DNA from: an uncultured Bacillota bacterium
GTDB taxonomy: Bacteria; Bacillota; DTU025; MWDF01
DNA: 64,000 bases
NCBI GenBank assembly: GCA_963823655.1
Contig: CAWGMK010000013.1
Coordinates: 288,001-352,000, forward strand
Direction of reading: 5' to 3'
In this document: piece by piece, positions 8,577 to 55,040 of the stretch
Numbering within the stretch: position 1 is the stretch's first letter
Layout: each line of letters starts with the position of its first letter
The notes under the pieces: model-generated
What the model saw: the letters and a program-made list of their open reading frames with translations, nothing else
Told to the model about the DNA's origin: nothing
Databases searched by the model: none
Position numbers and translations under genes: made by a program

Positions 8577-8892
8577 TGGCTTAACGGCAGTCGAGGTAAT
8601 CGTTGCCGCCGTAATCCTCGTTATTGCATCTGTATCCCTGCTTGGGCTCTATAACAGCAATTTCGGCTGGATTATTGGGGCCGGTTTCAGGACAGAGGCC
8701 GTTGATAAGGCAAAGGCATTGATTGATGCGAAAATCGCGGCCGGGGCAGCTACAGGTTCGACCGGCCAGCTGGTAATAAGCTTCACGGGAACTGATGACG
8801 TTATTGTAGAGGGCGAGTTCGTCAGGTTCACAGGAACAGACGGCCCTAACGACTCAACATCGGTGACTCTTAATACATTCATCCCTAAGTAG
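8551..8892 (+). CDS. Type IV minor pilin / pseudopilin (PilV/GspI-like)
   Basis: Class III signal KNNSG|LTAVEVIV with E+5 and a hydrophobic helix; RBS AGGAGG. Confidence 0.8.
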   Translation: MIKRIKNNSGLTAVEVIVAAVILVIASVSLLGLYNSNFGWIIGAGFRTEAVDKAKALIDAKIAAGAATGSTGQLVISFTGTDDVIVEGEFVRFTGTDGPNDSTSVTLNTFIPK

Positions 8893-8912
8893 ACAGAAAG
8901 GAGGAGGCGCTA

Positions 8913-9445
8913 GTGCTCTTACGCAGGCTGAGAAATCAAAAAGGCGTGACTCTGGTCGAGCTTATTCTTGTCATTGCAGTGCTCGGATTTGTGATGGCTG
9001 CCGCGCTCTCCTTCTTCTTGATTGGGCACCAGGACATTTTCTTTGGGAAGCAGCCAGGCTAAGGTACAGCAGGAAGCAAGGCTGGCTACGACTATAGTCA
9101 GCGGCGATTTGAGGACTTCCTTGAACGTACGCGCCTATTTCCCGGGGGACACATGGGTTGCAGATTTAGACGACTATGTAGTGCAGAGGATAGGGACTGA
9201 GGCTCCTTTCTCGCTGATGTATACGAGGCCTAGCGGCAATTTGGAGACAGATTCAGTATTTACGAGCCTGGTTTTCAACGTTGTTACAGATGCAAACGGA
9301 AAGAGGTTCATCGTTTTCGAAGCAACAGGCGTGGATAGGGCAAAGGCAATATACAATTAATTCTTCCATGTTGCTCGAAAACTATAATAAGCATCCATTA
9401 CTCGCAGATGGCGAGGGCTATACAGTTATTGTCTTCGACAAGTAA
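8913..9445 (+). CDS. Type IV minor pilin (PilW/GspJ-like), two apparent indels
   Basis: GTG start after GGAGG and RNQKG|VTLVELILVIAVLG. It continues as GTRTFSLGSSQAKVQQEARLA (ORF 9022-9360) and probably QYTINSSMLLEN...VFDK* to 9445. Confidence 0.75.
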
Positions 9446-9467
9446 GTAGCTTTGAAGGAGGGGCGAC

Positions 9468-10939
9468 ATGAGGCATCTAAAAAGCCAGAAGGGCATCGCT
9501 CTCCCTATGGTGTTGCTCATAATAATCGTTCTGATATTGCTGGGTTTCGCACTTTCGGTGTTCGGTTATTACGAGGCTACATCCGCCATAAGGGAAGAGC
9601 ACCTAGCAAAGGCATACTACTCTGCACGAGGCAGCGTGGCTGCCCTTGCCAAGTATTTGACTACAGTGCCGGCAGACGAGGCTGAGGAACAGGTAATCGC
9701 AAATTATGTGACTACGATCGCCACCGATGGCGTAAGCGCCGCGGGTACAATCGAAGGTGTGCCATATAATCTTGTTGTGACCCAGGCAAACGATTTCGGT
9801 TCTGATCCGCCGTTCGGAGTTCTGACATTGACTTCTACAGGGACTTCAGGACAAGTTCTCCAAGAGCGCGGTAATACAGATCGGTTATAACCTTACAGAG
9901 TATATGAACGACGGCCCATTCGGAATAGTCGACAGCGCTTTGTACTCCTTCAACGAGGCTACTTCCGGCGGGACATTGTCGGATTATAAAGCAAATGCCA
10001 ATGGCTTGGTCAAGACAGCACTTGGATCCAGCAGGCATGCAAGTGGACGTAATGGTTGATCCTTTTGATACCCATACTCCAACCCAGGGACTACCCGATG
10101 CCTAACGAACCCGAATTTCCTACTACATTGGAGAACAGGAACGAGTTCTTAGTTGACGACGATACCGCGCCTGACGGAAGTTTCGTCTCTACATCTGTGA
10201 TTACTATCAACCCCGCAGTAAATTACGATGGCAACAATGACAGGGCCGTAATAGTAGACGGGGCAGGCGTAATTACCACGATTGTTAATAAAGGGACTCC
10301 TACATATATCAAAGTAGCAGGCCTGAACATCACGAAACCTCTGCTTTTCGACGGTAACGCTCCAGTTTATCTATTGGTTGAGAATTTCCTGAACATCGGA
10401 GCCGACGTCGGCTGCTCAAGCAAATGCAAAGAGCATTGCTGGAGTCTATACACATGATGCAGAATGCTGGCTCGGTCGCGTGAACATAATATATACTGGA
10501 TCCGATCCAATAACAGTTTCGGGGAATATTCGTATCAGGGCGAATATCGTCTCTTTGCAGGGATCGATAAAGGCGATTGACATTTCAATCGGCGGCAACG
10601 TCATAATGAGCGGCCATATCATTTGCGGCGGCGACGAAATCAAGCTGCACGGCGTTTTCGAGGCTGATAAGACGATGATCTACGCTCCGCTGGCATTGGT
10701 AGAGGTTAAAGGCTCTGCCGCATCAAATGACGATGAATACCATATAACAGGGGCGATTGTCGCCAACCACTTCAATGCAACCGCCTATTTCAATATTGAG
10801 TACGCGGCAATTACACGCGCGTCATTGCCATTGTGGTTCGACGCCGAAGACAGCGGCGGGAACTTAGGGCGACGAAACGCAAATTGGTACCGGCGAGTAT
10901 TATCCCAGCAACTTCGCGTTCACACGTTGGTTGAAGTAG
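9468..10939 (+). CDS. PilX/GspK-like pilin with large beta-rich C-terminal domain (several indels)
   Basis: SQKG|IALPMVLL lacks E+5, and the AKAYYSARG motif is typical of the PilX N-terminus. ORFs 10056-10457 and 10480-11010 (IYAPLALVEV...ITGAIVA) look like its continuation. The end is inferred at TRWLK* 10939. Confidence 0.65.
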
Positions 10940-10975
10940 CAAGTAATAGGCTATTTTGTGAAAATTCGAAGCAGC

Positions 10976-11004
10976 GGCCGGACAGAAATGTCCGGCCCTA
11001 TTTG
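10976..11004 (+). terminator. Hairpin/terminator closing the pilin cassette
   Basis: GGCCGGACA-GAAA-TGTCCGGCC followed by CTATTTG. Confidence 0.55.
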
Positions 11005-11065
11005 TTATAAAACCCGTTTTGTGTTAACTTATTTTTGTGATAATTCTTTTACGAAGGTTTTGCCA

Positions 11066-11752
11066 ATGCCTCTGATAAGCTCGATAGCAATAGACGGACC
11101 TGCTGGTTCAGGCAAAAGCACAATAGCGAAGATGCTTTCGGCGGCCACTGGCCTTCCCTATCTAAGCACGGGGGAGATGTACAGGGCCATTGCTTTATGC
11201 ACTCTAAGGGCCGGAGTCTCGCCTGATGATGCACTTGCTGTCCTTGATTGCGCAAAGAAGGCAATGATAGGCGCAAGGCCGGACGGCTCAGGCGGTTTCA
11301 GGATCTTCTGCGGCGAAGAGGACGTAACCCCGCTTCTGAGGTCTGCGGAAGTAAGCAGGCTTTCATCCCCCGTGGCGGTCCATGAAGCCGTTCGGAAGCT
11401 CATGGTAGAGCTTCAGAGGAATATCGCAATCGAGAACGATGTAATAATGGACGGCAGGGACATCGGCACCGTAGTGCTGAAGGAATCCCAGAATAAGATC
11501 TATCTTGACGCATCCGTCGAAGTACGGGCCCGAAGGCGCCTTCTTGACTACAAGGATAAGGACATCAGCTATGAAGAAGTCCTAAGGGATCTAAAGGAGC
11601 GCGACAGGCGCGACAGCACAAGGCTCGTCGATCCTTTAAGGCCTGCAGAAGACGCCCTGATTATCGACTCTTCAGATATGAGTCCGTCAGAGGTAATTGA
11701 AAGCATTTTGACATCATATAGGCTTTTCTACTGGGGGGAGACAACTTGCTGA
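11066..11752 (+). CDS. cmk: Cytidylate kinase
   Basis: IAIDGPAGSGKST, MDGRDIGTVV and ERDRRDSTR. Confidence 0.95.
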   Translation: MPLISSIAIDGPAGSGKSTIAKMLSAATGLPYLSTGEMYRAIALCTLRAGVSPDDALAVLDCAKKAMIGARPDGSGGFRIFCGEEDVTPLLRSAEVSRLSSPVAVHEAVRKLMVELQRNIAIENDVIMDGRDIGTVVLKESQNKIYLDASVEVRARRRLLDYKDKDISYEEVLRDLKERDRRDSTRLVDPLRPAEDALIIDSSDMSPSEVIESILTSYRLFYWGETTC

Positions 11753-12378
11753 ATAGACCGCTAGCTTTGTTTATATGGCTATACATCAAGATATTCCACC
11801 GCTTCCGCTGCTACGGCCCGGAAAAGGTGCCGATGAGCGGACCTGTGATAGTAGTCGCCAACCATGCAAGCTTCATCGATCCGGGGCTTATCGCCTTCAA
11901 TGTAAAAAGACCGATGTTCTATATGGCAAAAGCCGAGCTATTCAAGAATCCGGTACTTGCGTTCCTTCTGAAGCTTGTCAACACTTATCCCGTTAAGAGG
12001 ACAGGCGCAGACAGGGCCGCGATGAACCATTCTATAAAGCTTTTAAATGAGGGCAAAGGGCTTTGCCTTTTCCCTGAGGGCACCCGTACACTAGACGGCA
12101 ATCTAGGTGAGTTCAAATCCGGTGCTGCGTACCTTGCCATGGTGACGGGCGCAACGATTGTTCCTGTTGCATTATCGGGCACTTATGAAGCTTACAAGAA
12201 GGGGACGAAGAAGATACATTTCGTTCCGTTTAAATCCGTATTCTCCGACCCGATTAAAGTAGAGAAGGTAGACACCCACGATATCGAGACGCTCAGGACG
12301 GGTTCCTTGGAGCTTACCGAGAGAGTCAAGGCGATAATTCAGGTGCTTCTAGACAAGCAGAAGGGGGGATTAGCATGA
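11746..12378 (+). CDS. plsC: 1-acyl-sn-glycerol-3-phosphate acyltransferase
   Basis: NHASFID (HX4D) and FPEGTR motifs; cmk-plsC synteny. Confidence 0.9.
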   Translation: MLNRPLALFIWLYIKIFHRFRCYGPEKVPMSGPVIVVANHASFIDPGLIAFNVKRPMFYMAKAELFKNPVLAFLLKLVNTYPVKRTGADRAAMNHSIKLLNEGKGLCLFPEGTRTLDGNLGEFKSGAAYLAMVTGATIVPVALSGTYEAYKKGTKKIHFVPFKSVFSDPIKVEKVDTHDIETLRTGSLELTERVKAIIQVLLDKQKGGLA

Positions 12379-13022
12379 AGCTGTTCATCGACACGGCCAA
12401 TTTAGAGGAGATCCTCACTGTCGACAGTATGGGCATCATCTGCGGCGTAACTACTAACCCCACGCTTATAGCGCGCGAAGGCCATGACCCCGACACAATG
12501 GCAATGAAGATAGCCGAGTCGGTCAGTGGCCCCGTCAGCTATGAGGCCGTATCCTTCGATGCCGAGGGCATAGTCAGGGAGGGCCGGGCGATAGCTGCCA
12601 TGGCTCCCAATATGGTCGTCAAGGTCCCGCTCACAATAGAGGGCCTTAAGGCAATAAAGACCTTGTCGCAGTACGGCATCAGGACAAACGCCACCCTCAT
12701 TTTCAATGAGAACCAGGCATTGCTTGCGGCACGCGCAGGGGCCACATATGTAAGCCTTTTCATCGGCAGGCTTGTCGACAAGGGAGTCGACGCCATGGCC
12801 ATCGTACGCAATACCAGGAGCATATTAGATATGAACGACCTGGATGCGGAGATTATTGCCGCATCCATCAGAAATACGGAACAGGTGACGCAGTGCGCGC
12901 TTGCCGGCTCGCACATTGCCACTGTGCCCTACAAGATCCTTATGGAAATGGTCGAGCACCCCATGACTACGGCTGGCATAGAGAAGTTCATGGATGACTG
13001 GAAGAAGGTCTTCGGCAAGTAG
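12375..13022 (+). CDS. Transaldolase / fructose-6-phosphate aldolase family
   Basis: MKLFIDTAN, GVTTNPT, VVKVP, NATLIF and AASIR motifs. Confidence 0.92.
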   Translation: MKLFIDTANLEEILTVDSMGIICGVTTNPTLIAREGHDPDTMAMKIAESVSGPVSYEAVSFDAEGIVREGRAIAAMAPNMVVKVPLTIEGLKAIKTLSQYGIRTNATLIFNENQALLAARAGATYVSLFIGRLVDKGVDAMAIVRNTRSILDMNDLDAEIIAASIRNTEQVTQCALAGSHIATVPYKILMEMVEHPMTTAGIEKFMDDWKKVFGK

Positions 13023-15070
13023 TGGAGATCATTGTCGCAAAAACTGCAGGCTTCTGTGCCGGCGTCAGGCGGGCGGTCGACATCGCCCTCACTGCTTCTT
13101 CAAAAGCGCCTGATGAAGGCTGCAAAGACTGCGTTTCTATAGGGCCTCTGATCCACAATGAGGACATGGTACGCGAGCTTGAAAGCAAAGGCGTCCATGT
13201 GATAGCTGACATCGACGAAGTGTCAGGCAGGCCCTTGATCATCCCGTCGCACGGCACCAGCAAAATGGTATCTGTGCATGCAGAGGAACTTGGTTTGCGC
13301 ATAATCGACGCAACGTGCCCGCATGTCATAAAGCTCAAGCAGTTGGCAATTGAATGGGAACAGGCAGGCGGGGTCGCCGTAATTGCAGGCGATAAAGGGC
13401 ATCCGGAGCTCAAAGGGGTAGCCTCATATCTTAATGATCCGATAATCGGCAACGACACAGGCGAGCTAATGAAAGAGATGGCGGCCCTCCCGGGAAGGCG
13501 ATTCCTTTTGCTTTCGCAGACAACCGGAATTGCCGAAGATATGGATGCCATGTACGCCACCATGAAGGCGGCGGGAATTGATGTAGAATACTGCCGCACG
13601 GTCTGCCCTGCCACGCAGCAAAGACAAGCCGAGGTAAGGGCTCTGGCAAATGACACTGATGCTATGATAGTCCTCGGCGGCAGAAAGAGCGCAAACACCA
13701 ACAGGCTTGAGCAAATTGCGAAAAACTCAGGAAAACCTGTATATAGAGCGGCAAATCTGTCAGAATTGAATTTGGGCGAAATTAAGTCCGCAGGTTTTAG
13801 GAAACTTGGCATAACTGCAGGGGCATCGACCCCAAACAGCATTATCGAGGAGGTCGTCAGAGCAATGATTGAATCCGGCGCAGAGAAAGAGCTCACAATG
13901 GCAGAGCTGGAGAAGCTCTATCCCGAGAAAAAAGAAGAAGTCCAGGCAGCACCGAAGAAGAAGGATCTGCAGGTAGTAACGGGCAAGGTGACGCTTGTTA
14001 CGGAAGATGAGGTGCTGGCGGACGTGGGGCAGGGCTCGGATGTGCACATACCGAAGAACCAGCTCACCTTCTCAAAGGCTGTATCACCGCTGAAGATGTT
14101 CCAGCTGGGCGATCCCATTACCGTTGCAATAGAGGAGTATGATGCCACCAAGGACGTGCAGTACGCCTCCAAGCTGAAGGCAGATGCATTGACCGCATGG
14201 CAGAAGGCTCAGGACGCTTTCGAATCCGGCGAGGCCATAGAAGGCGTAATAGTCGAAGCCGTAAAAGGCGGAGTGGTAGTGGACATGGGTATTAGGGGCT
14301 TCATGCCCGCCTCCCAGATAGGGTCCAGGGTTGAGGACCTCAACACACTAATCGGCACCAAGGTCAAGGCAAAGGTCATAGAGCTGGAGGAATCAAGGAA
14401 GGGCGCAGTGCTATCCACCCGCGCGCTTGCCGAGTCGGAAAATGCCAAGCAAAGGCAGGAGAATATCGACAAGGTACAGGTAGATGCCATATTCGAAGGC
14501 ACCGTAAGGAAGCTTATGCCCTTTGGAGCATTCGTCAACCTGCTGCCCGGAATAGACGGCCTGCTGCACGTATCCGAACTCTCCTGGCAGAGGATCGGCA
14601 ACCCCTCCGAAGTGCTGAGCGAAGGCATGAAAGTTCAAGTGAAAGTAATCTCAGTGGATAGCGCCAGGGGGAAAATTTCGCTGAGCATGAAACAGTTGAG
14701 CGAGAGGCCTCGTTCTAAGACAGTGACGGCCGATTTGTCGGAAGGCGCTGTATATAAGGGAACAGTAGTGAAGCTGATGAACTTCGGCGCATTCGTGAAG
14801 ATGGAAAACGGCGCCGAGGGCCTCGTGCACGTCTCCCAGATCTCGGAGAAGAGGGTGCAGACCCCGGACGAGATCCTATCGGTAGGCCAGGAAGTCAAGG
14901 TGAAAGTCCTGTCAGTAAACGAGGAGAACGGACGTATCAGCTTATCGATAAAAGACGCTGAGCTCAAAGAGCAGAGGGACGAATTCGAAGGCTATATGAA
15001 ATCCGCCGAGGAAGACTTCCAGATTACGATAGCCGACAGGATAAGAATCAAAGGTGAACAGAAGCGTTAA
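13022..15070 (+). CDS. ispH: Bifunctional IspH (LytB) / 30S ribosomal protein S1 fusion
   Basis: AGFCAGV, DATCPHV, TVCPAT and GITAGASTP, followed by four S1 repeats (GLLHVSE, GLVHVSQ). Confidence 0.92.
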   Translation: MEIIVAKTAGFCAGVRRAVDIALTASSKAPDEGCKDCVSIGPLIHNEDMVRELESKGVHVIADIDEVSGRPLIIPSHGTSKMVSVHAEELGLRIIDATCPHVIKLKQLAIEWEQAGGVAVIAGDKGHPELKGVASYLNDPIIGNDTGELMKEMAALPGRRFLLLSQTTGIAEDMDAMYATMKAAGIDVEYCRTVCPATQQRQAEVRALANDTDAMIVLGGRKSANTNRLEQIAKNSGKPVYRAANLSELNLGEIKSAGFRKLGITAGASTPNSIIEEVVRAMIESGAEKELTMAELEKLYPEKKEEVQAAPKKKDLQVVTGKVTLVTEDEVLADVGQGSDVHIPKNQLTFSKAVSPLKMFQLGDPITVAIEEYDATKDVQYASKLKADALTAWQKAQDAFESGEAIEGVIVEAVKGGVVVDMGIRGFMPASQIGSRVEDLNTLIGTKVKAKVIELEESRKGAVLSTRALAESENAKQRQENIDKVQVDAIFEGTVRKLMPFGAFVNLLPGIDGLLHVSELSWQRIGNPSEVLSEGMKVQVKVISVDSARGKISLSMKQLSERPRSKTVTADLSEGAVYKGTVVKLMNFGAFVKMENGAEGLVHVSQISEKRVQTPDEILSVGQEVKVKVLSVNEENGRISLSIKDAELKEQRDEFEGYMKSAEEDFQITIADRIRIKGEQKR

Positions 15071-15144
15071 TATTCTTTTATCAGCGAATATAGTATAATA
15101 TTTGTGTTTATTCGAATCTCTTAAGCATGAAAGGGGCATAACCT

Positions 15145-16048
15145 ATGGAGAAGAGCGTGAAGAAGTCCTATATCATTCTGGCAGCGATTGTTGCCGTCGT
15201 AGTCATCGCAGCTGCGGCATGGATCATTTTCAACAAGTCTACAGCGATAGCGATCGTCAACGGCGAGAGGATAACCAGGAAAGAGTTCCTCGATAAGATG
15301 GAGAGCCAGGCAGGCATGCAGATCCTCCAGGAGATGATCAATGCGAAGCTGGTAGCCCAGGAAGCTGCGAAGGCCGGCATCGAAGTGACCACCGAGAGGG
15401 TAGACGAAGAAATGGTGAAGATCAAGGAGAACCTCGGCGACCAGTACGATTACATGCTCAGCATGTATGGCATGACTGAAGACAGCCTGAGGAAGACCCT
15501 TGAGCAGAACCTGCTTGCTTACGAGATATCGACGAAGGATATCGTAGTCACGGATGAGCAGATTGCCACCGACTACACCGAGAATAAGGATATGTATCTC
15601 GAGCCGGCTCAGGTAAAGGCAAGCCACATACTAGTTCGTACGAAGGAAGAGGCCCAGGCTATCCTAGATGAGCTCAAGGGCGGCGCCGATTTCGTAGAGC
15701 TGGCGAAGTCCAAGTCCATAGACACAGGCACCGCTGAGGCGGGTGGCGACCTTGGTTTCTTCGGCAGCCGGTGAAATGACCGAGGTATTTGAAAATGCAG
15801 CCTTCGCGCTGGCAGTAGGGCAGCTTTCAGGCATTGTTGAGTCCGAGTACGGCTTCCACGTGATCTTGTGCACAGACAAGAAGGCCGAGTTCATGCCGAC
15901 GCTCGAAGAAGCCCGCGAAGCCGTTATCGAGAAGATAAAGGGCGAGCAGGCAAAGAACATCGACACGCTGCTTCTCGAGATCAAGGACAAGTCGACTGTG
16001 ACAGTAACCGACGAGAAATATAACAGCCTCGCGGTTTCTACCCAGTAG
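15145..16048 (+). CDS. prsA: PrsA/SurA-type parvulin peptidyl-prolyl isomerase (indel near 15768)
   Basis: N-terminal TM, AIVNGERIT, VKASHILV, GGDLGFF, then FENAAFAL...ESEYGFHVI in the next frame. Confidence 0.85.
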
Positions 16049-41170: not shown

Positions 41171-41348
41171 CTGGCACCTCATTCCGGTGGAAATCTTACC
41201 TAATAATTATATCATCTAGCTTCCTGCTCTTTAAGGGCGAACAAAAACGATAAAGTAAGCGTCAACAGTTGTAGTTTGAGCGATTTGCCCGCATTACGAT
41301 AATTTGTTAAAATACTTGTGATTTATTATACGAAAGGAGGAACCAACA

Positions 41349-41769
41349 TTGAAGAAGATTCTAGTAGTAGCTTTCGTACTAGCACTCGTCGCGGTGGTTT
41401 CCCTTGCAGTCTACGCAGCGGTACCCACACTAACCGTACCAGGCGTGAATGCCAAGGACGATCTGCCCAAAGGTTGCGTGGATTGCCACGTCAAGTCCGG
41501 TAGCACCGATATCGACGATCCTGGCCGGCATGAAGAAGCTCATCGCCGCAGGCACGCATCCCAAGGCCCCGGATACCATGGTAGACGAGCTCAAGGACTG
41601 CTACGGCTGCCACAAGGCGGGAGCCGCGGCCGGAACCGTAGGTACTGTAGTCCATGTATCGCACTTCACCGGCGCCAACAACGCATTCGTGAAGGCTTAC
41701 AGCGGCAACTGCACCTGGTGCCACAGCGTCGACCTCACAAAGGGTGTCGTCGGAGTCAAGGGCAAGTAA
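41349..41769 (+). CDS. Secreted triheme c-type cytochrome (indel near 41512)
   Basis: TTG start after AGGAGG and a Sec signal peptide. CVDCH lies in the first frame; CYGCH and CTWCH plus three extra His lie in the next. Confidence 0.8.
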
Positions 41770-41787
41770 CTAGCGTCGCATAAAGAT

Positions 41788-41819
41788 TGGAGGGCGGTTT
41801 TCCGCCCTCCATTTTCTTT
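41788..41819. terminator. Terminator between convergent cytochrome and SLH genes
   Basis: TGGAGGGCGG-TTTT-CCGCCCTCCA followed by TTTTCTTT. Confidence 0.8.
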
Positions 41820-41846
41820 GTACTTAAGTAGTTGTGCGGCCTCCCT

Positions 41847-44079
41847 CTACGGTGTGACGGGAAGGAATATCGCAACGACGCCCACTATGATTCCCAGCAC
41901 GCCCAGTATCAGGCCGGTTATCCCAAGGCCCTTGATCTTCTTCATCTCCGCTTGCATGCTCTGATTCTGCTCCGCAAGCTGGCCCTCAAGGGACTTTATC
42001 TGGCTGTTGAGCTTGGCTTCCCTCTCCTGGGCCTGTATGTCTATGTCGTCCTTCTGGTCGATTGACGCCTTCTCCAGGTCCTTGAGCTTGGCATCGGTCT
42101 TCACTTGCATATCGGCAAGCTTCGCCTCAAGAGTCTCCTGCTTTATCTTCAGCCTGTTAAGATCGTCGCTCACTAACACCAGGAGCTTCGTCGTCGACTC
42201 GAGGTTGGATTTGAGAACATCAACCGAAGTCTCCAGCCTGGTAAGCCTGGACTCGATTGCCGCCACCTTCTCTTTAAGCGACGTTATGCTCGCGTTGGCG
42301 GTATCCATCGCCACCCTTAAGCCTGCTATCGAGAGGCCCAGCTCCGAATCTGCGTCCTGCAGCTCGATGGCGTTTCTTACTATCATAGCCTTGGAATCGG
42401 AGTCCACCTGGCTTATGGTGGCCTTCAGCTTCGCGATTTCGGACGTGAGCTTAGCATCCGAGTCAGCCCTTGTAGCCTTTTCCGCGTCGAGCAGCTGGAG
42501 CGCATTCTGGTATGATGTGCCCCCTTCCGCCGACAGGGCCGCCTTGAGTGCCGCCGCTTCCGTCTTTCTCTCCTGCTTCTCGTTCTCAAGTGCTAGCTGC
42601 AGGCCTGCCGCCGCCTTCTCTATATCGGCGCCAAGCACTTTGTTCAGCATTTCAAGCCTAGTCGCGGTAAGGACATCGGCATCGGCCCTGAACCTCGCCT
42701 CATCGCTTATCAGACCCTTTAGCGCCTCCACCGCCGATGCCAAATTCCTATCATTTTCTGCATCAGTTGAAGCCAGGTTCTTATCGTTTTCTGCGTCGGT
42801 TGATGCAAGCATCGCTGACAGGGAATCAAGCTTAGCCGACAGAGAATCAAGCTTTACTTCCAAAGCCTTCCTGCTGCTGCTCTCGGTCTCGATATAGGCA
42901 GAGAGGTTGGTGACGGCCTTGTCGATATCCTGCCCTAACGCGGCCTTTATCGCTTCAATCTCCCTGTCCATCGCGGCCAATTTGCTGTCAGTTTCGGCCA
43001 GCGCGGACTTCAGCCCGACTATTGAGGCATCGAGCTTCGCCGCCTTGCCATCGCCTTCTAGTTTGATTGCGTCCATCAGCTTCTGTGCGGCCGTCGCCTC
43101 ATCTGCCATAGCCTTGTTGAGCTCGGCAACCTGCACCTGCAGCGATTTGCCCCAGCTTTCCTCTACAGACTTTGAGGTCGGCATCGAAGCCGGCGGCCAT
43201 CGCGGCATGCTCCGCGCTCGCCCATTCCCTTAGGGACGCGACTGCTGATGCGAGATCCTCGGCCGTCTCGTCCTCCAGGGTTCCGACCCTGGTCTCGAGC
43301 GCCTTCCTGCTTGCAATCTCAGCTTCCAGGTAGTTAGACAGCTCGGTCACTGATTTGTCTATATCGTCGGACATAACCGCTTTAAGGGTTTCAAGCTCGA
43401 CCGACAGGCCGCTTATTACGGCATCAGTCTTGGCCTGCGCGCTCTCCAGCCCCTTAAGGGCTAAGCCTGTCTCTGCCTTGCTCTCATCGCCCTGCTTCTT
43501 CAATGAGTCGATGAGCTTCCTCTCGGCTGCCGCCTCTTCCTGCATGGCGACCATGAGAGCGGCTAACCCTTTCTCGGTGGTCTCAAGCGACTTGTCCATT
43601 GCGACTATACGTTCCGCTTGATCCTCCAGGTCATCCAGGATGCCTGCCGCTTCGGCCTTCCGCTCCTGCCTTTCGGCTGTGAGGGATTTGCCGGCCTCAA
43701 GCTCGGCCTTCTCGAGTTCTTTCACCCTTGTGTCGAGGGCGGCGAGCAGGGGCACCATCTCGCCTCTTAGCTCATTTGCCACCTCGCGCAGCACTCCCAT
43801 ATCCTCTTCGGTTGCCGTAACGGTCCCCTTTTCAAGGTCAGTAAGCATCTTTGATACTACGAATGCCAGCAGGTACCTGCTCACGGGCTCATCGCCCTTG
43901 AACGAGCCGTCATTGTAGACGCCAAGGTACCCCTTCTCTACCAGGCTCATAACCGCTTCATATGCCCAGTGGTCTTTGGTTATGTCGGTGACTACTGGCG
44001 CGGCAGCCGCCCCCAGCGACATGATAATAGCCATCATGATGCTTATGACCGCCACAATGCGGCCCTTTGATGAAAACAT
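41847..44079 (-). CDS. SLH-domain / long coiled-coil / C-terminal TM protein (indel near 43150-43200)
   Basis: Signal peptide, SLH (TDITKDHWAYEAVMSLVEKGYLGVYNDGSFKGDEPVSRY), about 600 aa of heptad-rich helix, and terminal KKIKGLGITGLILGVLGIIVGVVAIF. Confidence 0.82.
42744..42809 (-). repeat. Intragenic 33-bp tandem duplication
   Basis: Encodes LASTDAENDKN-LASTDAENDRN. Confidence 0.85.
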
Positions 44080-44097
44080 TTCAGGCACCTCCGGTCT

Positions 44098-46076
44098 CTA
44101 CTTTATTATCGCCATAAGGCCGTCGTTTTGAACCGGCAGCTGCTTTCCTGCCGCGTCGAAGGCCTTTACGTTCTCCATTCTTATTGTCATCCTGCCCGGT
44201 CCCGCAATTTTGAAATCTATGCTGGCTAACACCCCTGTCGGCTCCCCGCCGGGAAGGAATGAGCAGCTTATACCCCTGATGGCTTTGCCTTCGACCTTGC
44301 CTTGCACAAGTCCCGGGGAAGTGCCGTCGGGCAGTAGCATAAGAGCGCCTGCTGCAACCGGTTTGCGTCCAAGAAGGGCCAATGCCTCGCCCTCCCAGAC
44401 TATGTCGAACTCGATCTTGGCGACTCCTGAGAGCCTTAGGGCCGATACCTTCGCCTCTATGAAGCCGTCGCTGAAGGCGCCCAGCTCCAAGGATATGGAA
44501 CGCGTGGGGGAAGGCACCGATGCCGCCGACTGCGCCGCGACCTGCTTCACATTCGAGGCGGCCGCCTTCGCCTTGAACTGCACCGCCTGGGATCCGGGAA
44601 GTGGGGAAATGAACCAGGCGGATTCGTAGCTCATGCCCGGCAGGAAGTGCCCCAGCTGCCTTCCTTGTGAGTCTCCGGGAAGAAGCCTTGCTCCCGTCAG
44701 CTCCAAGGGAGGCCTCTGTCCAGTAGGCCGCCGAGTCGCCCAGGTTGCTTATCTGGGCTGTGACGGGATAGGATTCTTTCAGCGCTCCAGCTGCGTCAAG
44801 TTTTATCTCCGGGATTATCAACCTTAACGAAAGCCTTGGGGGTGAAAGTACCTCTACGGATCTGGTAATGGAATTGCCCTCAGCATTTGAGGATTCCGCT
44901 TTTAACTTCAGCTGAAGCGCGCCGAACGTCTTGCCGTCGGTCTTCAGCCTCCATGAAAGCTGGGTAATTGCACCCTGCTTCATATCCCCGACTGAGCGTA
45001 CAAGCTCCGATCCTGCCATGGGTTCAAGGCCTTTTGGCAGCTCAAGTGACACTTTAACATCGAGCGCCGGCCCTTTGCCCGTGTTTTGAATATATGCCAC
45101 AACGGTAAATGAGCTCTCCTGCCCCTCCTGAGGCGCCGCCACTTCCGCAGGCGCCGCAAGGCCCAGCGACAGGTTTCCGGGCGCCACTACTATGCCGCCC
45201 AGGCCGTAATAAGTCACAAGCGTTACTTGTGAGCCGGGCTGCAACACATAGCCGTCCCAGTACATCGCGGCCGCCGAGTCCAGGTCGAATTCGCCCTCTC
45301 TTGTGAAATCGCGTCCCGGCACCAAGCCTAACGTCCCACAGGCTGTCGGCGAAAGCTCCCCAGTTGCTGAAGATTACGGAACCCGGAGGAGTAAGCTCTT
45401 TGCCGATAAGCGTTGCCTGAGAAGTGACCGAAGGCTCTGCAAGGGAGTCGAAGGCCTGCCAGAAGTCTGGAAGCGTGCCGCCCGTAAAGTTCCTGTCCGA
45501 GACTATGGTGCTCTCGCCGGCCCTAAGTGGTGCGCCGTCATTCTTGCCCAGCATCGTATCGAGCATTAGCCTCAGCCCGACTGCTGCGGGCACAATTCCC
45601 TCGTTTTTCAGGGTGTAGGCGATCCTGACAGTGTCATTGTAGCCGGTCATGTGGTTCCTGGCGAATGATAGGTCCTGCGTGGCCCTTATATTCCCTAGCA
45701 TGTAGGAAGTCGTAATAGAGCTGCCCTTGGCGGCGGGCGCCACGGCTACTGAGCCGTACTTGCCCCCCGCTCCGGCCCTCTTCGAAGCTTTGCCGCCGAA
45801 TACCCAGTCCTGGCCGTCGATCCTGACAGTCGTATAGCTTGTCCAGGGCACCGGCCGCCCATATATCAGCGGCAGGTTGTCGTCATTCGGGTTTGCGGGG
45901 TCCCCCCCGGTAGTCTCGACGCCGAACCTGCCGTTCTCGCTCGTTTCAGCATTGACTATTATCTTTATGAACTCATTCGAAATCACAACAGACGAAGCGG
46001 CGCTCGCGGATATCGCGACTGCTCCCAGAAGGAGCGCCACCGCCGCTGTAAGTGCCAGGGTCCTTGCTCTGCTCAT
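44098..46076 (-). CDS. Secreted multi-domain beta-rich protein with Ig-like (CARDB/NEW3-type) modules and a cohesin-like C-terminus (two indels)
   Basis: Signal peptide, VGLRLMLDTMLGKNDGAP, VAYIQNTGKGPALDVKVSLELPKGL, and C-terminal GVLASIDFKIAGPGRMTIRMENVKAFDAAG. Confidence 0.65.
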
Positions 46077-46090
46077 CGGGCATGCCCCTC

Positions 46091-46888
46091 CTAATCCAAG
46101 AATGAAGCACTGATAAAGCGCTGTTCGGTCCTGGCTACCGGCTGCATCCTGAACGACACTTCGATTACAACCTTGTAAGCCCTCTCGGCGCTTTTAAATG
46201 TCCAGTATCTTAATATCGTAAGTTCGGCGTTCTTCTTGAGCCACTCGTCATCCGGGCCGGATAGTATGCCTGTGGAGAGTATCTTGCCGTCAGTGCCTAC
46301 CTTAACTTCCACGACAACATCGCCCTCGCTCGCAGAGCTCTGCGACTCTTTGGGGTAGGCTACCTCCCGTTTGGAGGCCACCATCGCCTCTCCGGTGGGA
46401 TCGTCCCCGGGGAATGCCGGCCTTACCGGCTCGGGCTCCTGCTGAGGTTCCGGTTGGGAGGTTGCGGGGACTTCCGCGGCATTAGTGGCTTCAACCGGTT
46501 CGGTCTGCACCGCGACGCTGCCCGTTGGCGAAGTCAGCAGCTCATCGGCCTCTTGAGTTATTGGCTCCTTCACTACGGGCTTTATGCTGATGATCGGCTT
46601 TGTGCTCGGTTGAACGGCAGTCTGCGGGGGCTTTACCGTCTCCGGTTTCTTGACTTCGGCCTCCGTCACCGGCGGTTTGGGCTCCTCCTGCGGCAGCGCA
46701 TCCTGCTGCGTCGCATCATCCGGCTCGCCCTTCACCTGCTGCAGCTCGGCCAGCTCGACGACACCCGAGCCTTCAAGCGGCATAAGTTCCACGACGGGTG
46801 CCGGCTGCCATGGTATCAGCAGCAGCAGCGCATGGATCCCCAGTGAGACCAATATTGCCAGTATGTTGTTCGCGGCGCTCTTTTGCAT
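46091..46888 (-). CDS. tonB: Energy transducer TonB
   Basis: TM with S-x3-H (SLGIH), Pro/Glu-rich linker, and TonB_C (YPKES...EGDVVVEVKVGTDG...WTF). Confidence 0.88.
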   Translation of the reverse strand: MQKSAANNILAILVSLGIHALLLLIPWQPAPVVELMPLEGSGVVELAELQQVKGEPDDATQQDALPQEEPKPPVTEAEVKKPETVKPPQTAVQPSTKPIISIKPVVKEPITQEADELLTSPTGSVAVQTEPVEATNAAEVPATSQPEPQQEPEPVRPAFPGDDPTGEAMVASKREVAYPKESQSSASEGDVVVEVKVGTDGKILSTGILSGPDDEWLKKNAELTILRYWTFKSAERAYKVVIEVSFRMQPVARTEQRFISASFLD

Positions 46889-47313
46889 CAGTTGACGCCT
46901 CCAGGCTCCCCTGCCGGTGTCCTTTCGACTGCAAGCGCAAGGTGGACCCCTCCGCCCAGCCTCACAGCATCTACTATGGCTATTAGCTGCTCATACGTTA
47001 CGGATTTATCCGCTTTGATGGCGAAAAGCTCCTCTGCGTCCCTCTCTAACGCCCCTTTGACCTTATCCGCAATTCCTGTGATGTCGGTTGCCTCTTCGCC
47101 GAAGAAGATGCCCCCTTCGGAATCGATCGAGACCATGACGATATCGGAGGCGAGCTCTTTTGGCGTCGCAGCCCTGGGAAGCTCGAGCGGCATTCCTGTG
47201 GTGTTCGTCCTAAACGAGGTGAAGATCATGAAGAAGAAGATCAGGTAGCACATCATATCCACAAGGGGTATGAGGTCCACCCTGGGCTTCCTCTTTCTCC
47301 TTGCGATATTCAT
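46888..47313 (-). CDS. exbD: Biopolymer transport protein ExbD/TolR
   Basis: DLIPLVDMM..LIFFFMI TM with the conserved Asp, and IKADKSVTY. Confidence 0.92.
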   Translation of the reverse strand: MNIARRKRKPRVDLIPLVDMMCYLIFFFMIFTSFRTNTTGMPLELPRAATPKELASDIVMVSIDSEGGIFFGEEATDITGIADKVKGALERDAEELFAIKADKSVTYEQLIAIVDAVRLGGGVHLALAVERTPAGEPGGVN

Positions 47314-47930
47314 CAGGATTCCCTCCCGCCGTCTTGTATGATGTCCACGATCTCGTGTTCTGAGTTGATCATCATTGCGACATGCCTGTCAATCTGGGCC
47401 GTCAGGAAGCTGTGCCCCAAAACGGTGGGGGCTGCCACTATAAGGCCGGCAGCGGTGGTGATGAGCGCTTCCGCTATTCCGCCTGCCAGCTGTGATGGCG
47501 CCGTTATGCCTCCTAGGGCATTCAGCACGTTGAAGCTTCTGATCATGCCGGTTACAGTGCCCAGCAGCCCCAGTAGAGGGGCGATGGTCGCCGTGGTCTC
47601 AAGCACGAGCATGTTCTTCTCCATGTTGTAGACTTCGTTCTGCGCGGTCCTTTCGAGGATCTCCTTCAGCGCGTCCTTATCGACGTCGTGCGCCTGCAGC
47701 GCCACCCTTGCCATGGCGGCGACCGGGCCTCTGAAGCTTCGAAGCATAGTCAGAGCCTCGAGGCTTCCTCCTTTGAGGTATGAGTTGCGCAAAGTCTTCA
47801 GGACTTTCTCCGGATCGCTGGGCAATATGCCAAGCTGTATTACTTTGATGATAATCACTGCCAGTGAGAATACGGAGCTGAGTAGTATCGGGTACATAAC
47901 CCAGCCGCCCATGCGAAATAGCTCAACCAT
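47313..47930 (-). CDS. exbB: MotA/TolQ/ExbB proton channel protein
   Basis: GGWVMYPI, APLLGLLGTVTGMI and GIAEALITTAAGL. Confidence 0.93.
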   Translation of the reverse strand: MVELFRMGGWVMYPILLSSVFSLAVIIIKVIQLGILPSDPEKVLKTLRNSYLKGGSLEALTMLRSFRGPVAAMARVALQAHDVDKDALKEILERTAQNEVYNMEKNMLVLETTATIAPLLGLLGTVTGMIRSFNVLNALGGITAPSQLAGGIAEALITTAAGLIVAAPTVLGHSFLTAQIDRHVAMMINSEHEIVDIIQDGGRES

Positions 47931-47956
47931 CTCAATACCTCCACAGATAAGATGTG

Positions 47957-49756
47957 CTAGTCGACCCTCTCAAATAAACTAAACGTCGCTTCTTCCCCTT
48001 TAGTCACGTTTCGGGGGCCGTTAACACCAGAAATACTGTTCTTTTCCCAAGCCTTTAACATCGTATTGGCATGTTGCAGCGCTTCTTTACTAACAGAGCC
48101 TGAGAGCATCCTTGCTATCTCCTGCGACCTTGCATCCTCCTCAAGGCTAACTGCTGAGACGAAGGAGCGCTCCCCGTCATCGGATTTTACTATCAGCATG
48201 TGCCTGTTTGCGGCGGCTGCGATCTGGGCGATGTGAGTAACTGCAAGCGCCTGGGCCCCCGCCGAAACCTCTTTCAGCTTGGCTGCGACGTGGTTTGCGG
48301 CGGCACCGCCCACGCCCTGGTCCACCTCATCGAACACCATCACGGTGTCGTTTTCCTGATGCTTCATTCCGGCGACCTTGAATGCCAGCATGAAGCGTGA
48401 AAGCTCGCCTCCGGAGGCCACTTTGGCAAGTGGCTTGGGATCCTCCCCCACATTGGCCGAGAAAAGGAATTCTACCTTCTCCAGGCCCGATAAGGAGGCC
48501 CATTTGCCCTCGCCCGCATCGAAACCTTCCGATCCGGTTCTAGCTGATAACGAGGCTACGAATCTCGCCTTGGGCATCATAAGCTCTGTAAGCTGCCTTT
48601 CGACCAGTCCCGACAGGTCTTGCGAGGCTTTCTGCCTTGCCCCGCTCAACTGGTCCATCAGGCTTAGCATTATTGACCTTTTCAATTCCAGGTCCATCCT
48701 TGCAGAATCGGTGCGGATTTCGAGCTCTCTTAGCTCCGCCGCCTCCGCCTTGCATCTCTGGCAGAAAGCGCCCAGCTCATCGGCCTCAAGCCCGAACTTC
48801 CTCTTCATTTTGCCTATGTCGGCGAGCCTTCCTTCCACCTCGGCGGCCCTGGCGGGGTCCAGGTCCAGTGAATCGCGAATCCTGCGAGCAGCCTCCGCCG
48901 CATCGGTTAGGGCATCCACTGCAGCCGCAAGAGGATCAAGGGCGTCTTTCACATCTAAGCCCAACCTGCCTGCCGAAATGATGCCATCAAGCGCTGACCT
49001 GGCCAAATCAAGGGCAGAATGCTCGTCGGATCCCGTTTCGTAAAGCGCGGAGTATGCCAAAGAGAGCGCCTCGAACAGCTTGCCGGAGTTAGCGAGCACC
49101 TTGGCCTCGGCCAGGAGCTCAACCTCCTCGCCGGGTTTGACGGATGCGTCATCCAGTTCTTTTATCTGATACTCCAGAAAGTCCAGCCTCGACTGCCGGT
49201 CCTTGGCCTTAGCCATAAGTGAGTCCAGCCCGTCTGCCGCCTGCCTCCATGACTTGAATGCCTCAGAAGAGCCTTTCAAGAAACCTTTGCCCTCTTCGGT
49301 GAGGAAAGTGTCAACTGCGGTAAGCTGAGCCGCGGGCCTTGTCATGCCCAGCCCGTCGTGCTGCCCGAAGATGTCGATTAGGCTTTCGGCGACTTGGGCG
49401 AGCTCGCCTGCGCTCACCAGCGTCCCGTCAATCCTGGCCCTCGATTTGCCGTTTTTCTGGACCTCGCGGGAAAGAATCACTATGCCCTGGGCATCTACAT
49501 CCAGCTCCAGGGCCGCAAGGGCGGCTTTGGCCCTTTCGTTATATGTTATGTCGAAAGCCGCCTCTACTGCGGCGGCTTCGGTGCCCCTTTTGACATTTTG
49601 CGCATCGGCCCTGCCCCCGGCGATGAGCGCCAGGCAGTCGACTATGAGCGACTTGCCGGCCCCCGTCTCGCCCGTCAGCACATTCAGGCCTTTTGCGAAT
49701 TCAAGCTCTATGTCGTCAATCAGGGCGAAATCCTTGACTTTCAGCGACTTGAGCAT
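47957..49756 (-). CDS. recN: DNA repair protein RecN
   Basis: TGETGAGKS, DIFGQHD, SGGELSR, FDEVDQGVGG and EIARML. Confidence 0.96.
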   Translation of the reverse strand: MLKSLKVKDFALIDDIELEFAKGLNVLTGETGAGKSLIVDCLALIAGGRADAQNVKRGTEAAAVEAAFDITYNERAKAALAALELDVDAQGIVILSREVQKNGKSRARIDGTLVSAGELAQVAESLIDIFGQHDGLGMTRPAAQLTAVDTFLTEEGKGFLKGSSEAFKSWRQAADGLDSLMAKAKDRQSRLDFLEYQIKELDDASVKPGEEVELLAEAKVLANSGKLFEALSLAYSALYETGSDEHSALDLARSALDGIISAGRLGLDVKDALDPLAAAVDALTDAAEAARRIRDSLDLDPARAAEVEGRLADIGKMKRKFGLEADELGAFCQRCKAEAAELRELEIRTDSARMDLELKRSIMLSLMDQLSGARQKASQDLSGLVERQLTELMMPKARFVASLSARTGSEGFDAGEGKWASLSGLEKVEFLFSANVGEDPKPLAKVASGGELSRFMLAFKVAGMKHQENDTVMVFDEVDQGVGGAAANHVAAKLKEVSAGAQALAVTHIAQIAAAANRHMLIVKSDDGERSFVSAVSLEEDARSQEIARMLSGSVSKEALQHANTMLKAWEKNSISGVNGPRNVTKGEEATFSLFERVD

Positions 49757-49783
49757 GCGCACCTCCTGGTGCGAAGATTATTT

Positions 49784-50236
49784 CTATCTTCTAAGGGAAT
49801 CCAGCTTCCTAACAACCTCGGCGACTGCCTCTTTGGGCTTAACGACCATGAATATGTTGTCGTCGCCGGCAAGCGTCCCCATGATTTCCTTCCAGCTGAG
49901 CTCGTCGAGCACGGCGGCAACCGCATGGGCGGCCCCGATTACGGTCTTAATCACGACCAGGTTCTCGCTGTCTTGAATGCTGACTACGTCGTCCTTCATG
50001 ACTCGCTCGATCCTTTTATTCAGGTTCTCAAGGTTGCGCTCCTCAGGGGCAGTATATTTATACCTGCCGTTGCTTGCGGGCCCCTTGACCAGCTCAAGCT
50101 CCTTAAGGTCCCTGGAGACGGTGGCTTGCGTGACTTCTATGCCGTCTGCTTCAAGCAGCATGGCTAGCTGCTCCTGCGTCTCAACGATATGGGTCCTAAT
50201 CAGCTCAAGTATTTTCTGGTGACGTCTGTGCTTCAT
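49784..50236 (-). CDS. argR: Arginine repressor
   Basis: TQATVSRDLKEL and GTLAGDD. Confidence 0.95.
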   Translation of the reverse strand: MKHRRHQKILELIRTHIVETQEQLAMLLEADGIEVTQATVSRDLKELELVKGPASNGRYKYTAPEERNLENLNKRIERVMKDDVVSIQDSENLVVIKTVIGAAHAVAAVLDELSWKEIMGTLAGDDNIFMVVKPKEAVAEVVRKLDSLRR

Positions 50237-50261
50237 CAGAACACCCCTCAATCAGCGTTTG

Positions 50262-51116
50262 CTATAGACGGCCTTCCTTCAGCCTATCTTTAAGGATACC
50301 GTAAAAATTCCTTTCTCTCAACCGTATAAACAGTGTTGTATATACAGATTTTTTCGCCCTCAGCTCATCGCCTGGCATCAAAGGCAGGTATATCTGCCCG
50401 TCGACCGTCATGACTGCCTCTTCGTTGCACCCCTCCACGACTATCTTTAACCTGCCGTCGCCCTTTACGACTATGGACCGCGAGAAGAGCACATGAGGGC
50501 AGATGAACGTGGCTACCAGCACATCAAGGTCCGGTGAGAGCAGCGGCCCTCCCGCAGAAAGGGAGTACGCCGTGGAGCCGGTGGGAGTAGCTATAATTAT
50601 CCCGTCCCCCGGATACCGCCCGAGATATTCATCGCCGATATACAAACCAAGGGTTATTAGCCTGGACATGCCGCCCTTGCCGATAACTACGTCGTTGAGG
50701 CCCGATATCTCCTCCACTACTTTGCCGCCCCTGATTAGCTGGGCGTCCACCATGGCCCTCTCGTCGATCTGGTACTGGCCCCTGGCGATCATCCTTACCG
50801 CCTCTTTTGGGTCGCCCTCGTGCACTTCGGCAAGGAAGCCCAGATGCCCGAGGTTTATTCCCATCAGCGGGATCTTGTAGTACATCGCCTTCCTCGCGGC
50901 CCCCAGCAGGGTGCCATCGCCGCCGAGCACTATGCAAAAGTCCATGTCTTTGGCGATTTCGGGCTCCCAGTCGAAGGGGATTAGCCCCGCCTCCCCGGCC
51001 ATATGGGAATCACCGAAGACGGCAACGCCCTCCTCTTTGAGGACACTTGCGATGGACCTTGCCAGCTCTATGGAATTCTCCTTGGAAGGATGTGCTATAA
51101 TCGCTGCTTTCGCCAT
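50262..51116 (-). CDS. nadK: NAD kinase
   Basis: GGDGTLL, GHLGFL, NDVV and TPTGSTAYSLSAGGP. Confidence 0.95.
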   Translation of the reverse strand: MAKAAIIAHPSKENSIELARSIASVLKEEGVAVFGDSHMAGEAGLIPFDWEPEIAKDMDFCIVLGGDGTLLGAARKAMYYKIPLMGINLGHLGFLAEVHEGDPKEAVRMIARGQYQIDERAMVDAQLIRGGKVVEEISGLNDVVIGKGGMSRLITLGLYIGDEYLGRYPGDGIIIATPTGSTAYSLSAGGPLLSPDLDVLVATFICPHVLFSRSIVVKGDGRLKIVVEGCNEEAVMTVDGQIYLPLMPGDELRAKKSVYTTLFIRLRERNFYGILKDRLKEGRL

Positions 51117-54392: not shown

Positions 54393-54438
54393 AGCGCACC
54401 TTCCCTTTAGAATGGGGCCCGGCCGAAGCCGGGCCAAA

Positions 54439-55030
54439 TCGCAAGTGGCAGCATCGCAGGTAAATACTGTGACTTAGGTCCAGTAGGTTTTCCCACCTGT
54501 ACACCTCCTCGTCGCCGAAAGGCGGTTTCCCTTTACGACAGGCTCCCTGCGTCACCGGCAGGGCGACTGGATTGCCACTTAGTTCACACTGCAATCCCTG
54601 CGAAACCAAGCATCCTAGGAGTTTTCCTCAACAGCCCTTAGGGCGGTCCTTAGCCTCTTTTGCAGTTACGGTTTCGGCCCGAACCCTTAGCCGTGGCCGC
54701 GGCGTCGGGCAGGGCTATCCCCCGCATCCGCTTCAAGGCAGGCTACGCTGCATCCAGCGCTTCCTCATACAGACGGGTCGCGCACCGGATTGCAGGTTAA
54801 CCCCAAGCCGTGGGTCTGTTTTCTGTATGGCCCACGTGTTTGGGCCTCCACGTCGCCAGGGTCAACGCCCACATGCCATTGCGGATCGCCCTGGAGACTA
54901 TCCTCCTGCACAAACCCCGGACTGGGCGTCTCGGAGCCCGCACAAGAGGCTTCATCGATGTGCCCTCAACGGAATTTTAACCCCGTTTTCAGGACAGCCG
55001 TGACTGACTAGGATAATGCGCCACCTGCAA
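54439..55030 (-). ncRNA. ole: OLE RNA (ornate, large, extremophilic), about 590 nt
   Basis: Non-coding gap between ispA/DUF212 and oapA-dxs-tlyA-nadK-argR-recN. It carries OLE-type blocks (CTAGTCAG, AGGGCACATCGATGAAG, GGGCGATCCGCAATGGCATGTGGGCGTTGACCC, GTAGCCTGCCTTGA, GAGGAAAACTCCTAG, GGGAAAACCTACTGGACCTAAG), and its ends are complementary. Confidence 0.92.
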
Positions 55031-55040
55031 TATATATATA

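Follow-up and report, generated by a model that had tools for sequence, protein, structure and literature searches.

A five-gene unit on the minus strand of contig CAWGMK010000013.1, which belongs to an uncultured Bacillota bacterium, encodes a variant of the Ton and Tol machines that is real and conserved and has apparently not been described before. The unit lies within the 64,000-nucleotide (nt) stretch analysed here (referred to as the window) and consists of genes for an ExbB/TolQ-like proton-channel subunit, an ExbD/TolR-like subunit, a TonB/TolA-like transducer, a secreted adaptor candidate (g4) and a coiled-coil tether candidate (g5). Judged from its gene content, its conservation, its tie to genomes with an outer membrane, its independence of receptors and the folds of its products, the module is best read as a conserved trans-envelope machine of outer-membrane-bearing Terrabacteria. 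The motor is of the kind that Ton and Tol-Pal also use, and the whole very probably represents a conserved five-gene module with a receptor-independent function in the envelope. That this function is specifically an energised, Tol-Pal-like one is plausible, if not quite probable. The Tol-Pal analogy is the best available reading, and the mechanism is a proposed one. The unit is composed as follows:

47931-47956, minus strand: recN-exbB spacer, 26 nt, with a GGAGG ribosome-binding site
47313-47930, minus strand: exbB/tolQ-like proton-channel subunit, 205 amino acids (aa), PF01618 (MotA_ExbB) E 1e-31
46888-47313, minus strand: exbD/tolR-like subunit, 141 aa, PF02472 E 1.5e-24
46091-46888, minus strand: TonB/TolA-like transducer, 265 aa, TonB_C E 1.9e-9
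44098-46076, minus strand: g4, secreted, about 658 aa, open reading frame (ORF) pieces in three frames, CARDB E 6e-8
41847-44088, minus strand: g5, SLH/coiled-coil/C-terminal-helix protein, about 743-746 aa, in two frames, N-terminal piece with SLH E 1.3e-7 and coiled-coil family matches
41788-41811, both strands: hairpin with a 10-bp stem containing 8 G-C pairs

The genome (2.3 Mb in 13 contigs, 97.1% complete) carries an outer membrane cluster encoding BamA with POTRA domains, OmpH, LptF/G, LptC, LptA and LptB (C10:438000-457000, positions 2831-11838 therein) and encodes a pyruvyl transferase of the CsaB type. Within it, exbB is the sole gene of the MotA/ExbB/TolQ family and the TonB-like gene is the sole one with a TonB_C domain. 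Profile searches of the whole genome gave no match to the TonB_dep_Rec barrel (PF00593), Plug (PF07715), TolB_N (PF04052) or OmpA/Pal (PF00691), so that the lack of a TonB-dependent receptor, TolB or Pal, originally noted for the unit, holds for the genome at this level of completeness. From the single motor and the single TonB_C domain, together with the missing receptor, Plug, TolB_N and OmpA/Pal, we conclude that the sole motor of the MotA/ExbB family in this organism has no known kind of output. LpxC and LpxB were likewise without a match in the genome, which thus possesses a lipopolysaccharide-transport set (the Lpt genes) without the core lipid A pathway.

The products of the first three genes have the features expected of a motor and its transducer. 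The best-scoring NCBIfam model was TolQ for the ExbB-like protein (85.5 bits with a cut-off of 221, versus 59.9 bits for ExbB) and TolR for the ExbD-like protein (54.2 bits with a cut-off of 127.3, versus 43.3 bits for ExbD), yet TolQ and TolR remained far below their equivalog cut-offs and the ExbB and ExbD models were also under theirs. The N-terminal hydrophobic helix of the ExbD-like protein contains an Asp which we take to be the equivalent of ExbD D25. In the TonB-like protein, an N-terminal membrane helix with the S-x3-H motif is followed by a linker rich in Pro, Glu and Lys and by the TonB_C domain (38.3 bits versus a cut-off of 24.6). Among 50 orthologues the His of the S-x3-H motif is invariant and the Ser is present in at least 90%; the linker varies in length, and the beginning of the C-domain, YPK..A...G.EG, is conserved.

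The module is kept well beyond the genus. The TonB-like protein was found in all six other genomes of the genus and, with weaker matches, in other families (18 of 41 genomes, its own among them), and the conservation of the order exbB-exbD-tonB-g4-g5 in relatives, on which the original prediction depended, was observed in 10 of 10 fetched loci. When the g4 alignment was run against one genome per species, 121 loci were confirmed, 80 of which were kept; they come from metagenome-assembled genomes (MAGs) of Bacillota, including Limnochordaceae/Limnochordales, Halanaerobiales and a Halothermothrix MAG (L102), and from Armatimonadota, including Candidatus Hebobacteria. Their neighbouring genes were assigned with hidden Markov models built from relatives. 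A TonB match lies directly upstream of g4 in 77 of the 80 loci; the remaining three have exbB and exbD matches, and two of them have an ORF of no assigned family in the TonB position. Matches to exbB occur in 68 loci, and the 12 loci without them begin too near the contig end. An SLH-type g5 directly 3' of g4 was found in 55 loci; in 11 of the other 25 the available DNA ends too early, and the remaining 14 are of the Armatimonadota type. At loci of the latter type, five of seven small downstream ORFs inspected lack SLH and encode a signal peptide, a coiled coil and a C-terminal helix; of the other two, one is masked and one unconvincing. From these counts and the SLH-less coiled coils of Armatimonadota, the constant core is ExbB, ExbD, TonB, g4 and a tail-anchored coiled-coil protein.

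The distribution of g4 follows that of the outer membrane. In a sample of 301 evenly drawn genomes of the phylum, which were searched for g4, Omp85 and the barrel of TonB-dependent transporters (TBDT), full-length g4 was present in 63 genomes, all of them with Omp85, which itself occurs in 73. None of the 228 Omp85-negative genomes contains full-length g4; 14 have partial matches only, and those that were fetched head very large proteins. These counts support the suggested co-occurrence with bamA (63/63 carriers, 0/228 negatives). Ten Omp85-positive genomes lack g4, and seven of these ten have receptor barrels. A TBDT barrel scoring over the cut-off is absent from 46 of the 63 carriers.

The g4 protein is composed of a signal peptide, a supersandwich N-domain, two Ig domains of the CARDB/NEW3 type and a cohesin-like C-domain. 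The model of the whole protein, built from 57 sequences, is all-beta with a predicted local distance difference test score (pLDDT) of 89.0 and a predicted template-modelling score (pTM) of 0.74. The N-domain, a head of about 280 residues, when folded alone (pLDDT 86.7, pTM 0.88) is predicted to be a galactose-mutarotase-like supersandwich, with a root-mean-square deviation (rmsd) of 3.0-3.2 Å over 206-222 of 281 residues. Its model matched the GH94-like part of cyclic glucan synthase (Z 16.9, rmsd 3.0 Å over 220/281 residues), the N-domain of cellobiose phosphorylase (Z 16.8) and aldose epimerases (Z 16.0), and the Foldseek search with the head was in agreement with a supersandwich (E 4e-8). 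Foldseek with the whole g4 model was uninformative, giving only multi-Ig look-alikes (integrin alpha, ciliary proteins) with TM-scores below 0.25. The catalytic set of aldose 1-epimerases consists of His and Glu. The head does not fit such an enzyme: the 41 invariant columns in 57 g4 N-domains, in which Asp, Arg, Trp, Gln and Asn are frequent, include no invariant His, the sequence profile of the N-domain matched no PDB chain and no Pfam match was found on the N-domain of this genome or of the orthologues. The profile of the head collected at least 3,345 cluster representatives, of which 965 scored at E 1e-30 or better.

At the other end of g4, Cohesin (PF00963) gave no match on the window piece 44098-44706; among orthologues the match was over the cut-off of 24.1 bits in L020 (40.5 bits) and under it in L018 (21.3 bits). 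The public names of g4 are 'hypothetical protein', 'cohesin domain-containing protein' and 'cellulosome anchoring protein cohesin subunit'. The N-domain together with NEW3 also heads a 2,072-aa RHS/YD-shell protein (G217, L104 6954-13172) and a 2,245-aa protein ending in three SLH domains (G035, L105 6571-13308), both in genomes without Omp85. In the tree of N-domains, rooted at the midpoint only, the Armatimonadota sequences form one clade beside the order of this genome.

The g5 protein begins with a signal peptide and one SLH domain (31.9 bits versus a cut-off of 20.8), continues with a coiled coil of about 600 aa, which has coiled-coil family matches, and ends with a hydrophobic helix. This helix was seen in the window gene and in 24 orthologues, with a tail of 0-4 residues behind it. 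No barrel domain match was found in g5, the C-terminus of which is a single helix; its N-terminus gives a match to NF033921, a model of cyanobacterial porins, in the stalk region. Between lineages the total length ranges from 194 to 1,447 aa, and the shortest coils have about 70 residues, the longest more than 1,300. The best-conserved part is the membrane-proximal segment of the coil, which is common to the SLH-less forms of Armatimonadota. The length of TonB increases with that of g5 (Spearman 0.53, n=50 loci with both genes, uncorrected for kinship), which is a hint only.

The tightness of the unit agrees with the original prediction. The recN stop and the exbB ATG are separated by 26 nt with GGAGG inside, as read by inspection of the sequence; exbB and exbD as well as exbD and tonB overlap by 1 nt, the tonB-g4 gap is 14 nt and the g4-g5 gap about 10-20 nt, no gap in the unit being larger than 26 nt. 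The true start of g5 may be the ATG at 44079. A hairpin scan found no terminator-like hairpin in the recN-exbB spacer. The terminator proposed at 41788 corresponds to the 10-bp-stem hairpin 41788-41811, which is the likely end of the unit; it is common to g5 and the convergent downstream gene, and the plus strand shows its T-rich tail more clearly. In one metatranscriptome, short contigs cover exbB/exbD (47090-47957), tonB and g4; none of them spans recN-exbB and parts of g4 and g5 are uncovered, and they neither support nor exclude co-transcription.

Both g4 and g5 are broken in frame in the window, and the indels presumed in the original prediction were located as three single extra bases: near 45324 and 44707 in g4 and near 43169 in g5. 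The frame switches were found by tblastn with intact orthologues followed by sequence inspection, and the contigs of four other public runs were compared over 41300-50300. The base at 45324 is absent in contigs of runs X3 and X5, that at 44707 in X5 and that at 43169 in X1; every other-run contig covering a break in g4 or g5 lacks exactly one base there. Reading through gives proteins of about 658 aa (g4) and 743-746 aa (g5), close to the expected 660 and 740 aa. In all eight listed orthologous loci g4 is a single ORF of 658-686 aa, and in seven of them g5 is a single ORF of 452-946 aa (216 aa in G038). Read in one frame, the window g4 is collinear with the intact orthologues of 658-686 aa, and g5 is collinear with intact ones of 635-946 aa. 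Left and right of each g4 break, the pieces are 62-71% identical to an intact same-genus orthologue. Since the contigs of close strains from other runs lack the extra bases and the orthologues are intact, the three breaks are most likely single-base insertion errors of the assembly, not signs of gene decay. A decaying relic with g4 and g5 as pseudogenes would be consistent with three breaks in 4.2 kb next to intact recN, exbB, exbD and tonB genes, but it is extremely unlikely: each break consists of one extra base missing from all other-run contigs that cover a break, an extra base of this kind is also seen in the neighbouring convergent gene and in the argR-recN spacer, identity to the same-genus orthologue is retained on both flanks of each g4 break, and the orthologues are intact in the eight listed loci. 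The pseudogene interpretation was dropped on the strength of the other-run contigs. As to the two neighbouring sites, the convergent small gene (41349-41783, plus strand) has a surplus base at 41511/41513 that is absent from other-run contigs, and at 49781 in the argR-recN spacer one base is absent in two of three covering DNA runs and present in the third.

The module resembles Tol-Pal in its motor family and in gene order (channel, stator, transducer of the S-x3-H/TonB_C type, periplasmic all-beta protein and wall-binding anchor), in the absence of a barrel receptor, in its restriction to genomes with an outer membrane and in the slightly higher scores of ExbB and ExbD with the TolQ and TolR models than with the ExbB and ExbD models. 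It differs in that g4 has neither TolB_N nor a beta-propeller and is composed of supersandwich, Ig and cohesin-like domains instead, in that the OmpA-type Pal lipoprotein is replaced by the SLH, long coiled coil and helical anchor of g5, and in the scores below the TolQ/TolR cut-offs and the Pro-rich transducer linker, which is like that of TonB. The module is not a member of the Tol-Pal family because TolB and Pal are missing and the scores stay below the TolQ/TolR cut-offs. In the Tol-Pal system itself, TolA pulls TolB off Pal and thus lets Pal bind the wall (PMC8928145). ExbB, ExbD and TonB_C domains, as well as a Pro/Glu/Lys linker and S-x3-H, are common to the module and the Ton systems, but this genome has neither a TBDT barrel nor Plug, 46 of the 63 carriers are without a barrel, and tonB is followed here by g4 and g5, whereas elsewhere it usually lies apart from the motor genes, according to the 2025 survey of TonB and TolA (PMC12204202). 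The survey also states that Tol-Pal does not occur outside Gracilicutes and that Negativicutes are the only Firmicutes in which Ton systems were detected. As a receptor was looked for and is absent, the module is not a full member of the Ton systems either.

For g5, the closest parallel in the order of parts is found in Omp-alpha, in which a signal peptide and a single SLH domain are likewise followed by an extended coiled coil and, at the C-terminus, by a hydrophobic segment; the likeness is one of sequence features. In contrast to Omp-alpha, g5 is encoded in a motor operon and not beside a beta-barrel gene, its length is 194-1,447 aa and its Armatimonadota forms are devoid of SLH. Omp-alpha of Thermotoga maritima, which forms fibres of about 50 nm between the wall and the toga, is a documented tether of the outer membrane to the wall (PMC10160955). 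An N-terminal SLH domain and a coiled-coil stalk are also found in OmpM/SlpA, tethers of diderm Terrabacteria, which differ from g5 in possessing a C-terminal beta-barrel; the true OmpM of this organism may be a separate SLH protein encoded beside the BamA/Lpt genes. There, in C10:438000-457000, a 364-aa SLH ORF (12101-13195) overlaps a 726-aa ORF (13128-15308) on the same strand without a Pfam match, and this pair may be another frame-broken gene, possibly for an OmpM-type tether.

An early trace of the system is found in the 2009 genome paper on Halothermothrix orenii, where ExbB, ExbD and TonB were noted together without a detected receptor and were said to possibly 'have a different function' (PMC2626281). 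The module fits this observation, a receptor-less ExbB/ExbD/TonB set in a carrier lineage, and the Halothermothrix MAG L102 contains it in full; the passage in PMC2626281, however, links the motor to neither g4 nor g5 and proposes no role. No paper describing the five-gene module was found in the full-text literature, subscription journals and supplements being outside the search. The claim that the system is undescribed thus stands for the module as a whole in open full text, but not for the receptor-less motor, which was noted in 2009.

We propose the following mode of action. Proton flow through ExbB/ExbD would drive the TonB arm across the periplasm, where it would act on g4 rather than on a beta-barrel receptor. 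The head of g4 would contact the wall glycan and its cohesin-like end perhaps g5, which would bind a wall polymer via SLH and sit in a membrane via its C-terminal helix. The outcome would be that the connection of the outer membrane to the wall is maintained or remodelled with energy input, the job of Tol-Pal in Gracilicutes, with TonB in the place of TolA, g4 in that of TolB and g5 in that of Pal and/or CpoB. We infer the engagement of g4 by TonB_C, that of g5 or wall glycan by g4, and the physiological role. The functional analogy with Tol-Pal put forward in the original prediction gains from the conserved order, which parallels tolQ-tolR-tolA-tolB-pal, from the occurrence of full-length g4 only with Omp85 and from the lack of receptor, TolB and Pal, but it does not extend to an SLH-bearing tether in Armatimonadota. 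More tentatively, and on the doubtful side, the module might be a third Ton/Tol branch native to diderm Terrabacteria (Armatimonadota and several lineages of Bacillota, among them Halanaerobiales and Limnochordia-like groups), in which a TonB-type arm would pull a glycan-binding/cohesin adaptor and thereby load, release or reposition Omp-alpha-like tethers. It would then be the missing counterpart of Tol-Pal, and its loss could be one step on the way from two membranes to one.

Several observations weigh against the Tol-Pal-like role. The ExbB- and ExbD-like proteins reach the equivalog cut-offs of neither TolQ/TolR nor ExbB/ExbD. Since the g4 head also heads giant RHS and SLH proteins in Omp85-negative genomes, it is a general extracytoplasmic head and not a part specific to the periplasm. 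Because g5 of Armatimonadota has no SLH, wall binding by g5 is not universal. A signal peptide combined with a C-terminal helix would by default be an inner-membrane anchor, and the basic cluster on the coil side of this helix fits neither topology cleanly. A TBDT barrel is present, mostly in one copy, in 17 of the 63 g4 carriers, and TonB may therefore also serve receptors in those 17 genomes. The co-occurrence counts are descriptive and overstate the support, related genomes not being independent, and the evidence for expression is weak, the metatranscriptome contigs being short, none of them spanning recN-exbB, and DNA carry-over being possible.

Other explanations were considered. The module might be a Ton system for nutrient uptake, in which the g4 head captures a glycan that is imported via a divergent channel or one from outside the barrel family (e.g. 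an OmpM-type porin), g5 merely holding the complex. Import is the classical use of TonB systems, the head shares its fold with carbohydrate-binding N-domains of GH94 and GH116 enzymes and with aldose epimerases, its 41 invariant columns suggest a precise ligand site, 17 carriers do have a TBDT, and the passage on H. orenii allowed for receptors too divergent to be detected (PMC2626281). We nevertheless consider uptake unlikely, as 46 of the 63 carriers have no barrel and this genome has neither barrel nor Plug, no sugar transporter or glycoside hydrolase genes accompany the module in the inspected loci, and the strictly conserved fifth gene encodes a structural coiled coil. Alternatively, g5 might be a type I protein of the inner membrane whose coil reaches to the wall and which, with g4, positions or regulates the motor or wall synthesis in the manner of CpoB or a stator anchor. 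Such a scaffold would account for the cleavable signal peptide and the C-terminal helix with its 0-4-residue tail, the default stop-transfer anchor of the inner membrane, for the best conservation in the membrane-proximal coil, shared with the SLH-less Armatimonadota forms, and for the correlation between the lengths of TonB and g5 given above, which is not corrected for kinship. It is quite unlikely, given that the basic residues are on the periplasmic side of the helix and not on the tail, that coils of about 70 to more than 1,300 residues go far beyond the distance between inner membrane and wall, and that the same architecture in Thermotoga was enriched in the toga (outer membrane) fraction (PMC10160955).

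A device for surface display, secretion or motility, in which the motor exports, exposes or moves g4 at the cell surface, was also considered. Motors such as Agl/Glt or other Ton-like ones move surface proteins, cohesin-like and CARDB/NEW3 domains are typical of proteins at the surface, giant surface proteins of other genomes, one RHS-type and one SLH-anchored, begin with the g4 N-domain, and public annotations call g4 a cellulosome-anchoring cohesin protein. This explanation is very unlikely: no secretin, usher or other export channel is encoded in the module, no dockerin partner was seen, g4 carries just an ordinary signal peptide, and the genome has no other motor of the MotA family, so that this device would be its only one. 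The Tol-Pal-like role is the reading that we prefer.

For the coupling of inner-membrane energy to the outer envelope in double-membraned Terrabacteria, the module provides a testable five-gene candidate. It also bears on the question of a TonB motor without receptors, raised for H. orenii in 2009, to which no later answer was found, and on models of how the outer membrane is tethered and of how Firmicutes went from two membranes to one. The module is clearly orthologous in the Halothermothrix MAG (L102), a genus with a cultivated species. The partner domain family, that of the g4 head, comprises at least 3,345 cluster representatives and is without a Pfam model.

In the window, the module follows a block of genes linked to the OLE RNA:

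54429-55040, minus strand: OLE RNA, 426 bits, real
49784-50251, minus strand: argR, the context 5' of recN
47957-49762, minus strand: recN, 601-aa ORF, collinear with and 59-60% identical to the recN genes of relatives; in the genus it ends the OLE-linked block

The original prediction regarded the module as attached to the end of the OLE operon. This is correct for the genus, where recN lies directly upstream of exbB in the four loci with enough flank, but not beyond it: in four loci of the sister family (L018, L019, L021 and L022) three redox genes, Fer2_4 (2Fe-2S), Pyr_redox_2 and DAO, are inserted between recN and exbB (about 5400-8400), and in two further families recN is not near the module, glutamate dehydrogenase being upstream in one of them. 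Because the adjacency to recN differs between families, the module is independent of the OLE/recN block, and the link between them is lineage-specific and incidental. Its inclusion as a component of the OLE operon was rejected, as it is located elsewhere in other families.

Two minor observations concern individual loci. The g4 N-domain of L059, on a contig labelled as a Bacteroidota MAG, is near-identical to that of the Bacillota MAG L062 and nested in a Bacillota clade; this contig is probably mis-binned. At both Halanaerobiales loci (L054 8737-9794; L102 8816-10076), g5 is followed by genes for nucleoside diphosphate kinase and a Hydrolase_2 cell-wall hydrolase.

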